Shown: positions 8,198 through 61,984 of the stretch, one piece after another | Layout of the letters: each line of letters begins with the position of its first letter | How positions within the stretch are numbered: the stretch's first letter is position 1 | Source of the DNA: a virus | DNA: 64,000 bases | Virus record (IMG/VR): IMGVR_UViG_3300025736_000010 | Location: 48,897-112,896 of that record | Reading direction: 5' to 3' (one strand) | Notes under the pieces: model-generated | What the model was told of the DNA's origin: nothing | Databases searched by the model: none | The model's input: the letters and a program-made list of their open reading frames with translations, nothing else | Translations under genes and position numbers: made by a program

Positions 8198-8226
8198 TTG
8201 ACAAACTTTGCTAAATAGTGTATAAT
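8198..8226 (+). promoter_or_regulatory. Sigma70 promoter with extended -10
   Basis: TTGACAAAC...AATAGTG TATAAT, 17-nt spacer. Confidence 0.85.
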
Positions 8227-8252
8227 CATGCTATTGATGGGAGGCGGTTAAA

Positions 8253-8789
8253 ATAGAGTGGAGAGAAATTCCTGGTTATGAGGATAACTATTTGTGTTCC
8301 GATCATGGGGATATATTTAGTTTGTCTCACAACAAGATAAAAGGTAAAAGACTGTCTAACAACGGATACCTTAGAGTCAATCTATATAAGAAATGCAAGC
8401 AAGAAACAGCGCTTGTTCATTCTGTTGTGGCGAGAACGTTTATTGGTGAACGCCCAGAAGGAATGCAAATAAACCACAAAGATGGTGATAAAACCAACAA
8501 TCACGTATTAAATTTAGAGTACGTTACTAGTAAAGAAAACTCTAGCCACGCTATTCGCACAGGATTGTTTAATCCTGTAGGCGAAAATAATGCAAGCAGC
8601 AAACTGTTAGAATCTGATGTTGTGGAGATACAGTATATGATTGATAGCAAGAATTTTATGCAAAAACAGATTGCAGACAAATATCATGTTTCTTCCGCAA
8701 CAATATCGGCTATAGCGACTGGTAGAATCTGGGGCACAGTAACAAATATTGAGTACTGCCCCAAAAAGAGAATAAAGGAGAGTGCATAA
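8253..8789 (+). CDS. NUMOD4-HNH homing endonuclease with C-terminal HTH (probable ATA start)
   Basis: In-frame upstream EWREIPGYEDNY NUMOD4 motif; INHKDGDKTNNHVLNLEY; paralogs at 37927 and 53941. Confidence 0.85.
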   Translation: MEWREIPGYEDNYLCSDHGDIFSLSHNKIKGKRLSNNGYLRVNLYKKCKQETALVHSVVARTFIGERPEGMQINHKDGDKTNNHVLNLEYVTSKENSSHAIRTGLFNPVGENNASSKLLESDVVEIQYMIDSKNFMQKQIADKYHVSSATISAIATGRIWGTVTNIEYCPKKRIKESA

Positions 8790-12583: not shown

Positions 12584-12734
12584 TTGACAAACGGCTGTTG
12601 ATAGTGTATAATATCGGTGTCGTCTAGGAGACTTGACACTCCAGGATGATACGTATAATATCATTACTTGACAGGAGCCTCGTTATAGCGGGGCTTTTGT
12701 CTTGCTTGACAAACGTTGGGGAATAGTGTATAAT
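12584..12734 (+). promoter_or_regulatory. Stack of tandem promoters with a hairpin
   Basis: TTGACA/TATAAT at 12584-12612 and 12706-12734 (17 nt), 12633-12659 (15 nt); hairpin GACAGGAGCCTCG/CGGGGCTTTTGTC. Confidence 0.75.
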
Positions 12735-37192: not shown

Positions 37193-37795
37193 ATGCGTAT
37201 AATTGACTGCGAACAGCGGACAGACGAGTGGTATAAGGCGCGTTTGGGAATCCCCAGCGCGTCCAATTACGGGAAAATCGTTGACGGGAGCGGTAAGCCG
37301 TCTAAGTCTCAGAAGGACTATCTTAATAGACTAGCTGCTGAGAGGATAACCGGTGTGCGCGAAGAGACACATACATCGGCTGCTATGCAGACAGGTATTG
37401 ATAGAGAAGATCTATCTCGCGGTGTGTACGCCATGACATATGAGGTCACGGTTGAGGAGGTTGGGTTCTGCCTTAGTGATTCAGGCAGATACGGCGCATC
37501 CCCAGATGGATTTGTGGGCGAGAATGGACTAGTCGAACTAAAGAATCCTTTGGCAAAAACCGCTGTTGGGTATCTTCGCAGTGGGAAACTTCCGTCTATC
37601 TATTTCCAACAAGTTGAAGGACAACTTCTCGTTACAAAGCGCGAGTGGTGCGATTTTGTGACGTACTATCCCGGTCTTCCGCTATTTGTTGTTCGTGTTG
37701 AACGAGACGAAGAGTTTTTGGCTCGTTTGGAAGATGAGCTTAATGTGTTCTGCGACAAACTAGATAAAGTTTGTAAGGAGTTAGGTGAGGAATGA
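37193..37795 (+). CDS. YqaJ/lambda-type exonuclease
   Basis: EQRTDEW...R.G..SAS; GASPDG; ELKNP. Confidence 0.9.
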   Translation: MRIIDCEQRTDEWYKARLGIPSASNYGKIVDGSGKPSKSQKDYLNRLAAERITGVREETHTSAAMQTGIDREDLSRGVYAMTYEVTVEEVGFCLSDSGRYGASPDGFVGENGLVELKNPLAKTAVGYLRSGKLPSIYFQQVEGQLLVTKREWCDFVTYYPGLPLFVVRVERDEEFLARLEDELNVFCDKLDKVCKELGEE

Positions 37796-37806
37796 ACTTT
37801 TCTCGC

Positions 37807-37835
37807 TTGACAAAACGTTAGAAATAGTGTATAAT
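37807..37835 (+). promoter_or_regulatory. Sigma70 promoter
   Basis: TTGACAAAAC...AATAGTG TATAAT. Confidence 0.85.
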
Positions 37836-37841
37836 ATAAAC

Positions 37842-37920
37842 GTTGGCGGCAAGGGCATCAGGCAGCATTGCCTATCCTACGGGTTGCCCGGTCGTCAACA
37901 AATAAACTTGCCGTAGGAGG
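37842..37920 (+). ncRNA. Structured pseudoknot leader RNA, copy 1
   Basis: Three stems plus loop pairing to the RBS; same topology as 53857-53933. Confidence 0.6.
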
Positions 37921-37926
37921 TCGAGA

Positions 37927-38484
37927 ATGAAAGAGAAGTACGATGAAGAAATTATTGGAGAACGATGGGAACCAGTTGTTGGCTATAAAGGATGGTACGA
38001 GGTTAGCGATATTGGAAGAGCGCGTAATGTAGCGGACAGAAAGCATACATTCGTTGGTAAGATTCTGAAGCAACGCATAATTAGCAGTGGCTATTGCGGC
38101 ATTAGTCTTTGTAGAAATGGCGATCAACATGATGCGATTGTCCACCGACTAGTTATGGCCGCATTCGTCGGCCAATGCCCAGAAGGCAAAGAGGTCAACC
38201 ATAAGGATGGCGATAAAACCAACAATAGATTGGACAACCTAGAGTATGTAACACAATCTGAGAATATGATTCACGCATTTGATACTGGACTACATTCTCT
38301 CGGTGGCGAGAAAAACAATATGAGTAAATTGACTGAGGAGAACGTGCATGAAATTAGGCGGCTTTTGCGTGCTGGGTTGACGCATAAATCTATTAGCGCT
38401 CTTTTCAATGTTTCTCGCTCTTGTATTGGCCTGATCGCAACAGGGGAAAGATGGGCCTATCTAAAAGAAGAAGGGGAGGAATAG
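37927..38484 (+). CDS. NUMOD4-HNH homing endonuclease with C-terminal HTH
   Basis: WEPVVGYKGWYEVSD.G; VNHKDGDKTNNRLDNLEY. Confidence 0.9.
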   Translation: MKEKYDEEIIGERWEPVVGYKGWYEVSDIGRARNVADRKHTFVGKILKQRIISSGYCGISLCRNGDQHDAIVHRLVMAAFVGQCPEGKEVNHKDGDKTNNRLDNLEYVTQSENMIHAFDTGLHSLGGEKNNMSKLTEENVHEIRRLLRAGLTHKSISALFNVSRSCIGLIATGERWAYLKEEGEE

Positions 38485-39746
38485 TGGTAATTACAAAATT
38501 ATTGCTACAAAATGTGTTAAAAATCAAAGCCGTGAATATAACTCCAATGGGGAATATTGTAAAAATCACTGGCAGGAACGCTCAAGGGAAATCGAGCATA
38601 CTAGACGGCATAGAAATTCTGCTAAGAGGGCCTTCTTCTTTCCCGGATAAGCCTATTAGGGAAGGAGAAAAACAGGGCGCTGGCCAGATTGATTTTGGAG
38701 ATTTTGTAATCACAAGAACAATCGATCCACACAAATTAACAGTTGTCTATAAAGGGTCTGACGAAAAGATCAAGAGGCCGCAAGAGTTCCTGGATAGTCT
38801 TCTCAATAAATACACCTGCGATCCGTTGAAATTAATGGGCTTGTCGCCTTCTGAACAAATGAACGAAGTTAAGAATATTTTAGGTATTGACTTCACCGAC
38901 TTAGACAAAGAATACGATTCTATCTATGAAACTCGCCGAGATCTAAATCGGGACGCGAAAGCCTTGAATTCTCTAACTAAAGGATATAGTGCCGACTCTC
39001 CAGTAGATCAAATAGACGATAGCGAACTTCTGGCAAAACATAGTAATGCGCGAGAAGTAAATACTGCGAATGCTAAACTAAGATTCGAGCTTGAAACAGA
39101 ACGTGATCGCGTTAAGTCGTTGAAGGAAGATGCGGCAAAGTTAGAAGATCAACTTCGTTCGATCAATGAAGAGATAGACAAGCGAACGGAGTCAGGTAAG
39201 GCATTGGCGGAAACAGTAGCTGGCCTTGTAGACGTTGACGACGCCAATCTGTTTGCAGAAATACAACGTATCCAAAAACACAATAGCGAGGCAAGCAAGA
39301 ACAAAGAGGTGGTAGGACTAGTCGTTGAGCTAAATGACAACGTAGCTGCGATAGAAAAGATAGAAGCCAGGATGGAAGAAATTAAGGAATACAAGATCAG
39401 CGTTATTAGGGACGCAAAGTTTTCTATTGAGGGCTTGACTATACAGGATAATGCGTTATACTATGCAGGCGTGCCGCTCAACCAAGCGAGTCAGGCCGAA
39501 AAATTGCGTGTGTGTATGGCGTTATCAATAGCAGGTAAGCCAGAAATAAAAGTCATCCTCATGCCGCAAGCTTCGCTGTTAGATGAAGACAATATGGAAT
39601 TAGTATCAAAAATGGCGGAAGAGTTGGACTTTCAGATATGGATGGAAATCGTTGGTGATGGTGATCCTCTTTCTTTCGTGATTGAGGACGGCGAGGTAAA
39701 ACATTCCCCTGACGGCGACGTTGTGGGACAAGAGAAGTTATTTTAG
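38484..39746 (+). CDS. SMC/SbcC-like ABC ATPase
   Basis: GRNAQGKSS Walker A, long coiled coil, ASQAE signature; GGAGG RBS before GTG. Confidence 0.8.
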   Translation: MVITKLLLQNVLKIKAVNITPMGNIVKITGRNAQGKSSILDGIEILLRGPSSFPDKPIREGEKQGAGQIDFGDFVITRTIDPHKLTVVYKGSDEKIKRPQEFLDSLLNKYTCDPLKLMGLSPSEQMNEVKNILGIDFTDLDKEYDSIYETRRDLNRDAKALNSLTKGYSADSPVDQIDDSELLAKHSNAREVNTANAKLRFELETERDRVKSLKEDAAKLEDQLRSINEEIDKRTESGKALAETVAGLVDVDDANLFAEIQRIQKHNSEASKNKEVVGLVVELNDNVAAIEKIEARMEEIKEYKISVIRDAKFSIEGLTIQDNALYYAGVPLNQASQAEKLRVCMALSIAGKPEIKVILMPQASLLDEDNMELVSKMAEELDFQIWMEIVGDGDPLSFVIEDGEVKHSPDGDVVGQEKLF

Positions 39747-45632: not shown

Positions 45633-48482
45633 ATGACAAAATTAAATAGGATAGATAGGTACTTGAGTCGGGAAGGCTGGGAAATCAGAGAGAATAGCAA
45701 TATGGGGTACTCGCTACAGGGTTTGAACGTGAGTATAACTGAAAATGAAATTTCAAAATATTGGCTGAATGAGGTATATCCCAAGGATATTAAGGAGGCG
45801 CACGAGAGCGGGGACTTTCATATTCACGACCTTGGAACGTTGGGCTCATACTGTGTGGGATGGGACTTAATGGACCTTCTTACTAAGGGATTTAAGGGTG
45901 TTCGAGGGAAGATCGAATCTCTCCCAGCAAAACATCTAAGAGTTGCGATGTTGCAGATAGTTAATTTCATGTATACGCTACAGGGGGAAACGGCAGGAGC
46001 ACAAGCGTTCTCTAATGTCGATACATTTCTTGCTGCTTTTATTAGGTCTGACAATGTTTCATACGAAGATTTGAAACAAAATGTCCAAGAATTTATATTC
46101 AATTTGAACGTCCCGACTCGCGTTGGGGCGCAAGCGCCATTCACAAACTTCACTTTAGATTTAGTCGTTCCAGACCATCTAAAGAAACTCCCAGCCATCG
46201 TTGGAGGGAAGCCGTGCGATTTTACGTATGGTGAACTACAGCATGAAGTTGACATGTTTAACAGAGCATTCGCTGAAATTATGATTGAGGGCGATGCTGG
46301 TGAAAGACCATTCACGTTCCCAATTCCCACATATAATCTAACAGAAGATTTTGACTGGGAAAACCCTATATACAATCCAATTTGGGAAATGACGGCCAAG
46401 TACGGCACCCCGTATTTTTCTAATTTTATTAACAGCGATATGAATCCCGAGGATGTCAGAAGCATGGCTATTCTTGGTTCACAGAATGTAATATATAAGA
46501 ATGGGAATGGGAGGGTTTCTATAGATGAAATTAGAAACATTGTTTCTAGGTGGATAAGCAGCAAAGAAAAACCAAGCTATAGCATACTTAATAATGGAAA
46601 ATTTGTTAGCATCTCAGACATGTTTGAAGTCCCGTATGATAAATACGATAAGTATGTGTCTATCATGCTTGATAATGGGTTGAAGCAGAATTTCTCGATG
46701 CAGCATAAATGCCCTGTGGTGCGCGACGGAGAGATAACAAACGTTGAGAGCCAAGACCTAATTGCTGGCGATATGCTTCTTTTTGCAAAAAGAGCATATG
46801 ATATAGATGAGGCAATTGGTAGCTACGAAGCCGGATTAATGGTTGGTTATTTTCTTGGAGAAGGATGGAAACAAACACATAGTGATTCTGAAATAAACTT
46901 CGCCATAAACATAGAAAGGGAAGACATAGTTAAAAGGATATATGATTTCTTTACTGCAATCGGGTGTGAAGTATCGTATTATAAACAGGAAGATGTGCAC
47001 ATATTCAAGGTTCACGTTTATGGCAGACAGGCCGTTGGGTTTGTATCTCAATATATTCGTGGTACAACAGCAAAGACAAAAAGGATAGACTATAAAACGT
47101 GGAACACAAGCCTTCTTTTTAGGGAGGGAATGTTTGAAGGATACCAAGATACTGATGGAAGTAAAAAGGTAAGAAATATAGCACACACTACTAATAAAAA
47201 GCTCGTTGAAGATCTTGTTGTCCTTTGTTCTTCTATTGGTAGAGGAGTTTCTTATTCTGTGAATAAAAACAATACCAGATACTTCAAGAAGGATAAGTCG
47301 GATTTTGAACGCTTTACAAGCTATAAGCTGGAAGAAAGAGATTACAACGATTTTAATGACGACTATTATACTGTTGATGTTAAGTCTGTTTCTTTTGAGA
47401 ACTCAAAATCGGATGTTGTTTATAATTTTACAGTTTCTACAAAAGAACATCTATATGAACTTCCTAATGGTATAGTCACACACCAATGCTGTAGGCTGCG
47501 GATCAACAACGGAGATCTATACAAAAGGGGCGGCGGGTTATTTGGAGCAAATCCCAAGACTGGAAGTTTAGGTGTAGTCACAATTAATTTGCCTAGAATT
47601 GGGTGTATCGCAGATAACGAAGAGGAGTTTTTAGATATTCTTACTGGGCTTATGTGGAAGGCAAAAGACTCTTTAGAAATTAAGAGAGAACTTCTAGAAA
47701 AGCTAACAGAACAAGGGCTTTATCCGTACTCTGAGTTTTATCTTAGAGATATTAGTGTTAGTGGGAAAGGATACTGGCATAATCATTTTTCGACAATCGG
47801 CACAATTGGGATGAATGATGCTTTGTACAATTTGCTCGATACAGATATTATGTCTGAAGAGGGGAAGGAATTTGCAATTAGGGTTTTATCGCATATGAGA
47901 GAGGTCATTTCATTGTTTCAGAACAACACTGGGAATATTTACAACTTGGAAGCAACCCCCGCAGAATCCGCAAGCTTCAAACTAGCGCTGAAAGACCTTA
48001 AATATCTTGACGACATCAAGTTTTATAACATAGACGTTGTTGGCGGGGATACTCCGTATTATACGAATTCTTCCCAATTGCCTGCATCATCTGGGCTTAA
48101 TTTATTTGATTCTCTAGATTTACAAGACGAGCTACAGGTATTGTACACTGGAGGGACTGTGTTCCATACTTTCCTTGGCGAGCGAGCGCCTGATATTGGC
48201 TCGTTGAAGGCTCTCATCAAAAAGATTGCGACAAACTATCATTTGCCTTACTTTTCCATAACTCCGACCTTTTCCGTATGCCCTAATCATGGGTACGTTG
48301 CTGGAGAACATTTGTTTTGCCCAGAATGTGAGGAAAGATGCGAGATATATTCCCGTGTTGTTGGCTACATAAGGCCGCTTGATGCGTTTAATGATGCCAA
48401 GGTCGCCGAGTTCTTCCAAAGAGACAACTATACAGTTTCTGGGGATGTTCCAGAAGACGACTTGACAAACACCAAAGAATAG
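45633..48482 (+). CDS. nrdD: Anaerobic (class III) ribonucleotide reductase with intein
   Basis: HIHDL, GAQA, FTFPIPT, spliced SMCCRL, EATPAES, YSRVVGY glycyl-radical motif; no ATP cone. Confidence 0.95.
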   Translation: MTKLNRIDRYLSREGWEIRENSNMGYSLQGLNVSITENEISKYWLNEVYPKDIKEAHESGDFHIHDLGTLGSYCVGWDLMDLLTKGFKGVRGKIESLPAKHLRVAMLQIVNFMYTLQGETAGAQAFSNVDTFLAAFIRSDNVSYEDLKQNVQEFIFNLNVPTRVGAQAPFTNFTLDLVVPDHLKKLPAIVGGKPCDFTYGELQHEVDMFNRAFAEIMIEGDAGERPFTFPIPTYNLTEDFDWENPIYNPIWEMTAKYGTPYFSNFINSDMNPEDVRSMAILGSQNVIYKNGNGRVSIDEIRNIVSRWISSKEKPSYSILNNGKFVSISDMFEVPYDKYDKYVSIMLDNGLKQNFSMQHKCPVVRDGEITNVESQDLIAGDMLLFAKRAYDIDEAIGSYEAGLMVGYFLGEGWKQTHSDSEINFAINIEREDIVKRIYDFFTAIGCEVSYYKQEDVHIFKVHVYGRQAVGFVSQYIRGTTAKTKRIDYKTWNTSLLFREGMFEGYQDTDGSKKVRNIAHTTNKKLVEDLVVLCSSIGRGVSYSVNKNNTRYFKKDKSDFERFTSYKLEERDYNDFNDDYYTVDVKSVSFENSKSDVVYNFTVSTKEHLYELPNGIVTHQCCRLRINNGDLYKRGGGLFGANPKTGSLGVVTINLPRIGCIADNEEEFLDILTGLMWKAKDSLEIKRELLEKLTEQGLYPYSEFYLRDISVSGKGYWHNHFSTIGTIGMNDALYNLLDTDIMSEEGKEFAIRVLSHMREVISLFQNNTGNIYNLEATPAESASFKLALKDLKYLDDIKFYNIDVVGGDTPYYTNSSQLPASSGLNLFDSLDLQDELQVLYTGGTVFHTFLGERAPDIGSLKALIKKIATNYHLPYFSITPTFSVCPNHGYVAGEHLFCPECEERCEIYSRVVGYIRPLDAFNDAKVAEFFQRDNYTVSGDVPEDDLTNTKE
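46467..47486 (+). mobile_element. Intein (340 aa) with LAGLIDADG domain, Ala1 and C-terminal Gln
   Basis: RSM/AILGSQ...VYNFTV...ELPNGIVTHQ/CCRL; GYFLGEG and EGYQDTDG. Confidence 0.9.
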
Positions 48483-48490
48483 TATATAAT
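48462..48490 (+). promoter_or_regulatory. Sigma70 promoter
   Basis: TTGACAAAC...TATAAT, 17-nt spacer. Confidence 0.85.
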
Positions 48491-48495
48491 GATTT

Positions 48496-48613
48496 TTGTG
48501 CGGTTGCGGCTTCTTAGGAAGATCTGACGTGCGAACGGCAGGCGGAAAGCAAGTCGATATGACCACTGCAACCCATAAGATCGGGAAGGCACGGCTCCCG
48601 GCCAGCCGCACAA
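48496..48613 (+). ncRNA. tRNA-like structured RNA, copy A
   Basis: 11-bp closing stem TTGTGCGGTTG/CAGCCGCACAA starting at the predicted +1. Confidence 0.6.
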
Positions 48614-48636
48614 TCTAAAGCAACAAGGGAGAAACC

Positions 48637-50666: not shown

Positions 50667-51017
50667 ATGAAAATAGCACAAGAAACAGCTGAGTACATCT
50701 ACAACAGACAGATATCTGACTACCCGATGTACGTTGACGAACTTGAGTCGTTCATTGCGTTTAAGATTAACGGCGGTGAAACACCAAAACATATCAAGGT
50801 TAATCTTGACCTTATTCCAGTAAAAGAATGTTTGCCTACAAACAAAGAGGCAATGTGGTGTCTTGAGATTGTACGCATAAACACATGCGGAGAACGCGAA
50901 CGTGATTTCGCTGAATATGATGATGGCCGGTGGTTGGCTGTTGACGGGACAGGCGATATATACAAAAAAGTGACTCATTGGTCAACAATCCCCGGCTTGA
51001 CAAACGCCGAAGAGTAG
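50667..51017 (+). CDS. Hypothetical protein (VTHW motif)
   Basis: IPVKECLP...VTHW; AAGGAG RBS. Confidence 0.55.
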   Translation: MKIAQETAEYIYNRQISDYPMYVDELESFIAFKINGGETPKHIKVNLDLIPVKECLPTNKEAMWCLEIVRINTCGERERDFAEYDDGRWLAVDGTGDIYKKVTHWSTIPGLTNAEE

Positions 51018-51025
51018 TGTATAAT
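50997..51025 (+). promoter_or_regulatory. Sigma70 promoter of tmRNA
   Basis: TTGACAAAC...TAGTG TATAAT. Confidence 0.85.
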
Positions 51026-51053
51026 TAGTACATATAGGAGGCAAAAAATATAT

Positions 51054-51418
51054 GGGGGCGACTTTGGAATCGAGCGGTTACAGGAAGACATGATTGCAAG
51101 CGTAGCGCCAACTACTAAACTGGCAACAAAAACAAAGTTCAACATTAAAACACTCTTCGCTAATGCGAAGGATCGAGTCGTAAGCTTCGTCAGTGGACTC
51201 TTCTCGGTCAACGCCACACTGGCAAACGCAGTACCTGTCCCAGCTTAGAGCAAGGGACCTACAGAGGCTTTCCTGGTTGAGCCAATACTAATCGACCAAG
51301 TGGTGGAACGACCGAAGCTGGTCAACCCCAAGGCATCCATGCCTAACTGGATATGCTTGTAGACGTTGTGTAGAATGTAGATCGTGACTCGGTGTTCGAA
51401 TCACCGACGCCTCCACCA
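51054..51418 (+). ncRNA. ssrA: tmRNA
   Basis: GGGGGCG/CGCCTCC acceptor with G3:U70, GGAATCGA D-region, GACTCGGTG-TTCGAAT-CACCG T arm, ACCA end, internal tag frame; 365 nt. Confidence 0.92.
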
Positions 51419-53819: not shown

Positions 53820-53848
53820 TTGACAAATAGCATAAAATAGTGTATAAT
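53820..53848 (+). promoter_or_regulatory. Sigma70 promoter
   Basis: TTGACAAAT...AATAGTG TATAAT. Confidence 0.85.
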
Positions 53849-53856
53849 GATAGATG

Positions 53857-53933
53857 CAGGCGGCCTAAGTCGTGGGTCATATTGATCCATCTCATGGAAC
53901 GATGCGGGTCGCCTGACAAAATAACCATGAGGT
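53857..53933 (+). ncRNA. Structured pseudoknot leader RNA, copy 2
   Basis: Same topology as 37842-37920 with compensatory changes. Confidence 0.6.
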
Positions 53934-53940
53934 GTTAGGA

Positions 53941-54483
53941 ATGAAGGAGATGGAAAATTGGAAAGACGTAGTTGGCTATGAAGGATGGTATGAGATTAGT
54001 GATTGGGGGAATGTCAAGAGGGTAAAGAAATGGAAAGGCGCAGTTGTGGGGAGGGTTCTCAGGAATCAGACAGATAAGTATGGATACAGGAGTGTCTATC
54101 TCAATAGAGACGGGAGCCGCAGGTTTTTCAGAATCCATCGTCTAGTCGCGGCGGCGTTTATTGGTGTATGCCCTGACGGCAAGGAAGTTAATCATAAAGA
54201 TGGGCGTAAGGCGAATAACCATTTAGAGAATCTTGAATATGTAACATCGTCTGAAAACCAACGCCATTCGTATGCCATGGGATTAAGGTCTAATCGCGGG
54301 GAGAAGGCGCCAAACAGCAAGTTGAAAGAAGAAGATGTGCGTAAGATAATTCTGCGTATTGGGAAAGAAACGCATAAATCAATCGCTGCGGATTTTAACG
54401 TAGGGAGATCGACCATTGCTGCTATTGCGTGCGGTCAAAATTGGGCGTATCTAAAAGAGGAGGACGATGACGAACGAACTTAA
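53941..54483 (+). CDS. NUMOD4-HNH homing endonuclease with C-terminal HTH
   Basis: WKDVVGYEGWYEISDWG; VNHKDGRKANNHLENLEY. Confidence 0.9.
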   Translation: MKEMENWKDVVGYEGWYEISDWGNVKRVKKWKGAVVGRVLRNQTDKYGYRSVYLNRDGSRRFFRIHRLVAAAFIGVCPDGKEVNHKDGRKANNHLENLEYVTSSENQRHSYAMGLRSNRGEKAPNSKLKEEDVRKIILRIGKETHKSIAADFNVGRSTIAAIACGQNWAYLKEEDDDERT

Positions 54484-60450: not shown

Positions 60451-60523
60451 ACGCCCGTAGCTCAGCGGACAGAGCAGCGGTCTTCTAAACCGCTGGCCGA
60501 AGGTTCAAATCCTTCCGGGTGTA
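60451..60523 (+). tRNA. tRNA-Arg(UCU)
   Basis: Full cloverleaf; loop CTTCTAA; T loop TTCAAAT; CCA not encoded. Confidence 0.93.
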
Positions 60524-61908: not shown

Positions 61909-61984
61909 GCTCCCGTAGCTCAGTTGGAAGAGTATCGGTCTTATATGCCGGTTGCCGCAGGTTCGAGTCCTGCCGGGAGTACCA
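61909..61984 (+). tRNA. tRNA-Ile(UAU)
   Basis: GCTCCCG/CGGGAGT acceptor, loop CTTATAT, GTTCGAGTC, ACCA end. Confidence 0.88.

Follow-up and report, generated by a model that had tools for sequence, protein, structure and literature searches.

How phages tolerate homing endonucleases, which are toxic selfish genes, has been detailed only for T4-type phages, in which simple hairpins and internal late promoters are used. The restraint of T-even homing endonuclease genes by RNA structures that sequester the ribosome-binding site (RBS) is the established precedent (PMC2988022, section 12). In the account given there of I-TevI, I-TevII, I-TevIII, segB, and Aeh1 mobE, an RNA structure located 5' of the phage homing endonuclease gene buries a good Shine-Dalgarno (SD) sequence and limits translation (PMC2988022). 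The same account presents these hairpins as simple and local, without a conserved family-wide fold, and bypassed by means of a late promoter lying inside the structure (PMC2988022). In a similar topology, a stem loop or internal loop pairs with the SD region through an A-rich linker in the preQ1-II/III, SAM-II/V, and NAD+-II pnuC motif riboswitches. In the E. coli rpsO/S15 leader, a pseudoknot at or near the initiation region controls initiation. The T4 gene 32 leader likewise has a pseudoknot at or near the initiation region that controls initiation (PMC3014915, PMC535899). A structured RNA located 5' of an HNH-domain gene is also found in HEARO, the IscB omega-RNA. In this work, a leader RNA was analyzed upstream of two phage nuclease genes. 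As in the T-even phages, an SD sequence is held in structure directly upstream of an HNH-type ORF; here the pairing partner is the internal loop of an adjacent stem, so that a pseudoknot is formed.

Results

The window, i.e., the whole stretch of 64,000 nt that was analyzed, is part of an IMG/VR virus record, and the features of the two leader-bearing cassettes are collected in Table 1. Perfect TTGACA-17-TATAAT promoters occur 11 times on the + strand of the window, compared with 0.01 expected by chance, and a promoter of this type opens each cassette. The two nucleases are paralogues (52–54% identical), and the cultured-phage homologues of the cassette 1 nuclease carry the annotation HNH homing endonuclease. 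Both cassettes lie directly upstream of essential-looking phage genes. An AAA ATPase ORF at 38487 follows directly 3' of the cassette 1 nuclease gene, and the ATG of the terminase large subunit (54467; the ORF is GpA_ATPase, 7e-25) overlaps the 3' end of the cassette 2 nuclease gene. Because of this arrangement, the cassette promoter probably feeds the ATPase and terminase genes too, while the leader would act on the nuclease alone.

Table 1. Coordinates of the window and of the two leader-bearing cassettes. Positions are those of the window, except in the first line.
Feature	Position	Strand	Details
Window	bases 48897-112896 of 112.9-kb IMG/VR virus record		
Cassette 1 promoter	37807..37835	+	TTGACA-17-TATAAT, 12/12 match
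Leader copy 1	37842..37926	+	P1 37842-50/37891-99; P2 37853-57/37885-89; P3 37860-64/37869-73; A-rich linker 37900-10
Pseudoknot 5' strand, copy 1	37875..37882	+	UCCUACGG, 3' internal loop between P3 and P2
Pseudoknot 3' strand, copy 1	37911-18	+	CCGUAGGA, overlaps GGA of Shine-Dalgarno GGAGG 37916-20
Nuclease gene, cassette 1	37927..38484	+	NUMOD4 + HNH_3 (+ weak C-terminal HTH), 185 aa; Pfam HNH_3 5e-18, NUMOD4 5e-10
Cassette 2 promoter	53820..53848	+	TTGACA-17-TATAAT
Leader copy 2	53857..53940	+	P1 53857-66/53906-15; P2 53869-73/53899-903; P3 53874-79/53883-88
Pseudoknot, copy 2	53890-97 with 53925-32	+	UCUCAUGG with CCAUGAGG; SD GAGGUG 53929-34; duplex -14.0 kcal/mol
Nuclease gene, cassette 2	53941..54483	+	NUMOD4 + HNH_3; Pfam HNH_3 8e-14, NUMOD4 7e-11

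Several other promoter-associated features were observed in the window. A third NUMOD4-HNH_3 paralogue (8198-8789) has a consensus promoter at 8198-8226 and no structured leader, and only ~26 nt separate this promoter from the reading frame near 8253. From the in-frame stop (8235-37) to the conserved Trp, there is no ATG, GTG, or TTG, and GGGAGG lies 8 nt upstream of an ATA at 8253. A weak non-canonical codon may therefore serve as the start of the third paralogue; this would also keep the nuclease level low. Downstream of a consensus promoter at 48462-90 lie ~120 nt that fold strongly (105 nt of them with ~-35 kcal/mol) and in which neither an RBS nor an ORF is obvious; this region (48462-48620) may encode a promoter-defined non-coding RNA. 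A phage-encoded tmRNA (Rfam, 57 bits) is located in 50997-51418 and is driven by a consensus promoter at 50997-51025, and two tRNA genes (60451-60523 and 61909-61981) lie downstream of it. Finally, two consensus promoters 122 nt apart at 12584-12734 enclose two strong hairpins, the second of which is GC-rich and followed by a U-run in the manner of a terminator; a short transcript that runs from promoter to terminator may be produced here.

The original prediction described three helices (P1, P2, and P3) and a pseudoknot in the leader of cassette 1, and all of them are present in the sequence where it had placed them. P1 of copy 1 consists of 9 bp, two of them G.U. The loop strand UCCUACGG is perfectly complementary to CCGUAGGA over 8 bp, with a duplex energy of -12.4 kcal/mol, and the overlap of the latter strand with the GGAGG of the RBS was likewise as predicted (Table 1). 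The spacing between the SD sequence and the ATG (37927) is 6 nt. The same topology with different helix sequences had been claimed for the second HNH gene (53941), and it was recovered there as copy 2. Between the two copies, the pseudoknot is changed on both sides at three positions. The nested P1-P2-P3 stem was recovered by RNAfold for both copies, with -35 and -32 kcal/mol and z = -3.0 and -2.4, respectively. ViennaRNA cannot score pseudoknots, so the stability of the complete fold is an estimate, composed of -22 to -35 kcal/mol for the nested part and -6 to -14 kcal/mol for the duplex.

A protein search returned ~180 HNH homologues, and the alignment of the closest (A1) led to 240 loci from metagenomes, IMG/VR, and GTDB genomes. 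The same leader was seen on inspection of the upstream regions of L015, L018, L016/L095, L022, L025, and L128. For a covariance model (R1), seven leaders were used, and both copy 1 and the pseudoknot were left out. The sole extra match of R1 across 288 kb was copy 1 (37841-37929, E = 1.6e-3), which an improved model (R2) matched at E = 6.6e-12. R1 also pointed to another leader copy in L025 and, as a weak candidate, to L037. A gene-independent pattern scan contributed L374 and a second, divergent copy in L375 (L375b), and whole-record searches with R2 contributed L387. Two broader patterns gave ~200 loci; in this approach the pseudoknot bases were left free, and the complementarity filter and the covariance model left only L503 and L549 as real. 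In total, 13 distinct homologous leaders with 9 different pseudoknot sequences were obtained from metagenome and IMG/VR phage contigs. A covariance model and a homologue search had been put forward with the original prediction as a check on it, and it withstood both, as a model made without copy 1 finds copy 1 and the leaders so collected covary.

Candidates that did not hold up were L440, which has a perfect 8-bp complement but gave no covariance-model match and was taken as chance, L138, a plain hairpin with E = 0.2-0.3, and L210 with E = 0.6. In ~2.6 Mb of further phage and metagenome DNA, no non-member match fell below E = 0.08. Pattern scans of viral-contig DNA (primary-sequence, loose group-A, and promoter+P1) gave only chance matches besides the loci already known or confirmed. 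BLAST of the leaders against 50,697 records of cultured phages returned no leader-like sequence. The closest HNH homologues in cultured phages (Bacillus phages, 45% identity) have upstream spacers of 59–78 nt with no leader match. In metagenomes, IMG/VR, and GTDB genomes, the leader is lacking at a further ~230 loci that have HNH homologues, and it is therefore rare among NUMOD4-HNH genes. The leader survey covered loci other than the closest protein homologues (54–61% identity, ENA contigs).

Two of the loci have peculiarities of their own. In L025, identical leaders are found at 1116-1203 and 2223-2305, 1.1 kb apart on one metagenome contig; each has its own -10 box and a differing upstream sequence, and the second is truncated by the contig end. 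In L128/L373 (IMGVR_UViG_3300013120_000025), the HNH ORF behind an intact leader ends at 122 aa, compared with ~180 aa in its relatives, and it looks like a decaying homing endonuclease gene in which the leader has been retained.

The anatomy of the 13 leaders is uniform. The -10 hexamer ends 5–8 nt upstream of P1 in every one of them, so that the leader has a fixed position behind its promoter. This hexamer is TATAAT in most members and TAGAAT, TATACT, or TACAAT in the others, and a TTGACA- or TTGGAY-like -35 element is often present at 17–18 nt from it. P1 has 8–10 bp and is followed, after a short junction, by P2 (3–5 bp) stacked on P3 (4–6 bp) with a variable P3 loop. On the 3' side of P3 come one purine and the 8-nt loop strand, after which P2 and P1 are closed by their 3' strands. 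A linker of 7–14 nt, G-poor and A/C-rich, leads from P1 to the partner strand. In almost every member, this strand ends just 5' of the GG in GGAGG, GAGG, or AGAGG, and the start codon follows 5–9 nt past the junction of partner strand and SD sequence. The 8-bp pseudoknot overlaps the SD sequence in all 13 members. Both sequence and length differ among members in the junctions, the P3 loop, and the linker, and hardly any unpaired position is conserved save the one purine.

Covariation was tested on a model-made alignment (A5) of 14 distinct rows, to which the pseudoknot was added by hand. Standard pairs made up 92.9% of its 350 cells (77.5% in shuffles), changes on both sides were seen in 18 of 26 pairs (9.8 in shuffles), and the covariation score was 0.52 (0.24 in shuffles); none of 500 shuffles reached any of these measures. 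When the partners were slid by 1–3 columns, pairing fell to 36–53%, and a smaller alignment (A4) gave the same covariation picture. Both-sided changes were found in 5 of 10 pairs of P1, 4 of 4 of P2, and 6 of 8 of the helix between the loop and the SD region. As P1 and P2 are interleaved with this last helix, the fold is an H-type pseudoknot. The pseudoknot is also the best-supported helix, with 97% of its cells paired, and its three unpaired cells all come from the row of L037, which is shifted by an inserted column. Since the pseudoknot was absent from the search model, its covariation is independent evidence and was not fitted by the alignment. Each of the nine loop sequences, among them UCCUACGG, UCUCAUGG, UUCAGCAG, UCGCAUAG, UCCUACAG, UCUAUGAU, UCUGCUAU, and UCUUUGAG, matches its own exact partner. 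Furthermore, the alignment contains 32 G.U cells but 7 A.C cells. This excess assigns the fold to the sense strand and disfavors a fold of the antisense strand. The leader structure itself is almost certainly real, and the covarying pseudoknot of the original prediction is confirmed.

Ten of the leaders are located upstream of NUMOD4+HNH_3 genes. The leader of L374, which hardly differs from the L022 and L025 leaders, heads an unrelated small HNH protein (97 aa, PF01844). The L375b leader heads an HNH_3+AP2 protein, so one leader subtype serves both NUMOD4-HNH_3 and HNH_3+AP2 genes, and the L387 leader heads a ParB_N-like protein (24 bits, just below the Pfam cut-off). Because near-identical leaders stand on different genes, promoter and leader form a module that recombination has placed in front of various nuclease genes. 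The claim that the leader travels with the endonuclease family holds in that promoter and leader precede NUMOD4-HNH genes; the small HNH, HNH_3+AP2, and ParB_N-like genes are headed by them as well.

Discussion

We hypothesize, with a probability of about 0.65, that promoter and pseudoknot leader are a portable module that occludes the RBS and lowers or gates translation of the nuclease, repression being what we infer. The leader would be a cis-acting 5' RNA within a portable expression cassette that consists of promoter, leader, and selfish nuclease gene. The predicted transcription start is the first base of P1 or lies 1–2 nt before it. The nascent RNA would fold as a coaxial P1-P2-P3 stem, the 3' internal loop of which would display the 8-nt strand, and the ribosome-binding region, emerging 7–14 nt after P1, would pair with this strand to give the H-type pseudoknot. 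Bases up to and including the first 1–3 nt of a strong SD sequence would thereby be buried, and 30S binding would be lowered or gated, so that little endonuclease would be made from a strongly transcribed message. The downstream ATPase or terminase on the same transcript would keep its own RBS. Both the direction and the size of the effect on translation are inferred in this account. However, the pseudoknot covers the SD sequence only partly, and two G residues lie outside the helix. Some RBS-adjacent pseudoknots activate translation, as in IncB/IncI repZ. In several group-B members, moreover, alternative nested hairpins are near in energy to the estimate for nested fold plus duplex.

The near-equal energies in group B are also what would be expected of a conditional switch with the pseudoknot as its OFF state. 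A ligand, temperature, a shared RNA-binding protein of phage or host, or a competing fold would open or stabilize this state, so that the nuclease would be timed. A strong promoter (12/12) and a strong SD sequence that is nevertheless masked would be wasteful for a purely constitutive brake, and this combination fits a conditional switch better. In most members, P2, P3, and the pseudoknot could also give way to a conserved local hairpin, CCGUC-N5-GACGG, which is incompatible with them and is 85% paired, compared with 31–52% when slid. A helix of 7 bp (CGGCAAG/CUUGCCG), which the original prediction had taken as the sign of a switch, does exist in copy 1, and a helix of this kind arises in 3 of 1000 shuffles. 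However, it is private to this copy and found in no other family member, and it is ~10 kcal/mol costlier than the nested fold before the pseudoknot is counted. Neither the CCGUC..GACGG hairpin nor a hairpin flanking the SD sequence covaries beyond shuffles, and both were set aside as lacking covariation support. The SD-flanking hairpin has 5–6 bp (e.g., CUUACU/GGUAAG with the loop GUAGGA), competes with the pseudoknot, and is found only in the subgroup of L016, L022, L025, L128, and L374 and in copy 1 (37905-37926).

A switch also sits poorly with other properties of the leader. Riboswitch aptamers have conserved unpaired positions, of which there are almost none here bar one purine, and the headed genes are selfish nucleases and not metabolic or transport genes. 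No Rfam riboswitch was matched by the leader. The pseudoknot sequences differ between the copies of one genome, so one antisense RNA cannot address both. A riboswitch-like sensor, as the original prediction had suggested, is therefore unlikely, and a conditional switch in the wider sense seems to us a tentative alternative of rather low probability. The same holds for its fuller form, a doubtful one in our opinion, in which a two-state riboregulator module swapped among selfish nuclease genes senses a common signal from phage or host, be it a protein, a small molecule, or the infection stage. Such a riboregulator, if true, would license cutting only at the right moment.

The main role of the leader could instead lie in mRNA stability or processing, with the 5' stem blocking 5'-end-dependent decay or the ~20-bp stacked stem serving as an RNase III site, and with RBS pairing being secondary or cleaved off. 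P1 starts at the predicted 5' end in all members, as this would require. The stack of P1 and P2/P3, with its ~two helical turns and an internal loop, is loosely like the RNase III sites of phages. However, such a role gives no account of the covariation between loop strand and SD region in nine versions, and we consider it improbable.

An autogenous operator, in which the endonuclease would bind its own leader and shut off its own translation, has phage precedents at or near a pseudoknot, as in T4 gene 32 (PMC3014915, PMC535899), and the NUMOD4-HNH proteins bear nucleic-acid-binding modules, including the weak HTH, that might serve for such binding. The original prediction had named this possibility, and it was weakened by the homologues. 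Four protein architectures (NUMOD4-HNH_3, small HNH PF01844, HNH_3+AP2, and ParB_N-like) share one leader fold, which argues against an operator specific for one protein. In addition, the helix sequences vary freely, which leaves little for a protein to read specifically, and the third paralogue in the genome has a promoter without a leader. An operator of this type is thus very improbable. A nuclease-associated RNA was also mentioned in the original prediction; a role of this kind as a guide RNA is unsupported, because the leader lies between transcription start and start codon, and what its variable strand matches is the RBS of the same RNA and not an external target.

RBS occlusion by a portable promoter-plus-pseudoknot module thus remains our preferred reading. 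The control element is a conserved, strongly covarying pseudoknot that moves with its promoter and is reused on unrelated nuclease genes, and the mobile unit would in this way bring its own translational brake. Both the promoter and the SD sequence are E. coli-like consensus signals. As the 8-nt "key" varies freely yet always fits its "lock", and as these signals are E. coli-like, testing with compensatory mutants would be easy. The leader could become a compact, programmable translation attenuator.

Comparison With Known Systems

The original prediction held that the leader belongs to no known Rfam family, and this was borne out, as no match was found for the region or for the member loci. 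With cut-offs of E <= 10 for 37700-38100 and E <= 1 for 10 member loci, the Rfam search gave nothing relevant. Among the SD-sequestering pseudoknot riboswitches, which the leader resembles in topology, no curated covariance model matched; the leader also differs from them in having no conserved core that looks like a ligand pocket, no highly conserved unpaired core in general, and a non-metabolic gene context with no single metabolic pathway. Models of self-cleaving ribozymes (pistol, twister, hammerhead, HDV-like) gave no Rfam match either. For HEARO and the IscB omega-RNA (RF02033), there was no Rfam match and no adjacent IscB (RuvC+HNH) gene. In contrast to the omega-RNA, the leader has ~85 nt and pairs with its own RBS, and the proteins that it heads are homing-type nucleases of 97–232 aa without a RuvC domain. 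The T4 gene 32 and rpsO/S15 operators are bound by the regulated protein and serve one gene family each, whereas the leader serves four architectures.

In a full-text literature search, no description of a pseudoknot leader on homing endonuclease genes was found; the unnamed candidates of Fremin et al. (2023) lie outside that search. In that study, the intergenic regions of IMG/VR were mined, and 8,495 unnamed candidate RNAs were reported; the study lists 879 candidates that lie no more than 25 bp 5' of a gene for a protein with known domains (PMC10690425). HNH leaders are not mentioned in its main text (PMC10690425), and the unnamed candidates could include the leader family described here.

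The closest comparison is that with the T-even phages. Between the loop strand and the SD sequence, no conserved promoter-like element was found that would correspond to the internal promoter of the T-even structures, and the sole recognizable promoter lies 5–8 nt upstream of P1 in every member. Here the promoter thus precedes the entire structure, masking is by a long-range pseudoknot formed from an internal loop, and promoter and leader are conserved as a unit across nuclease genes. Masking of the RBS by RNA on phage homing endonuclease genes is already known, and what appears to be new in this family is the fold and the placement of the promoter.
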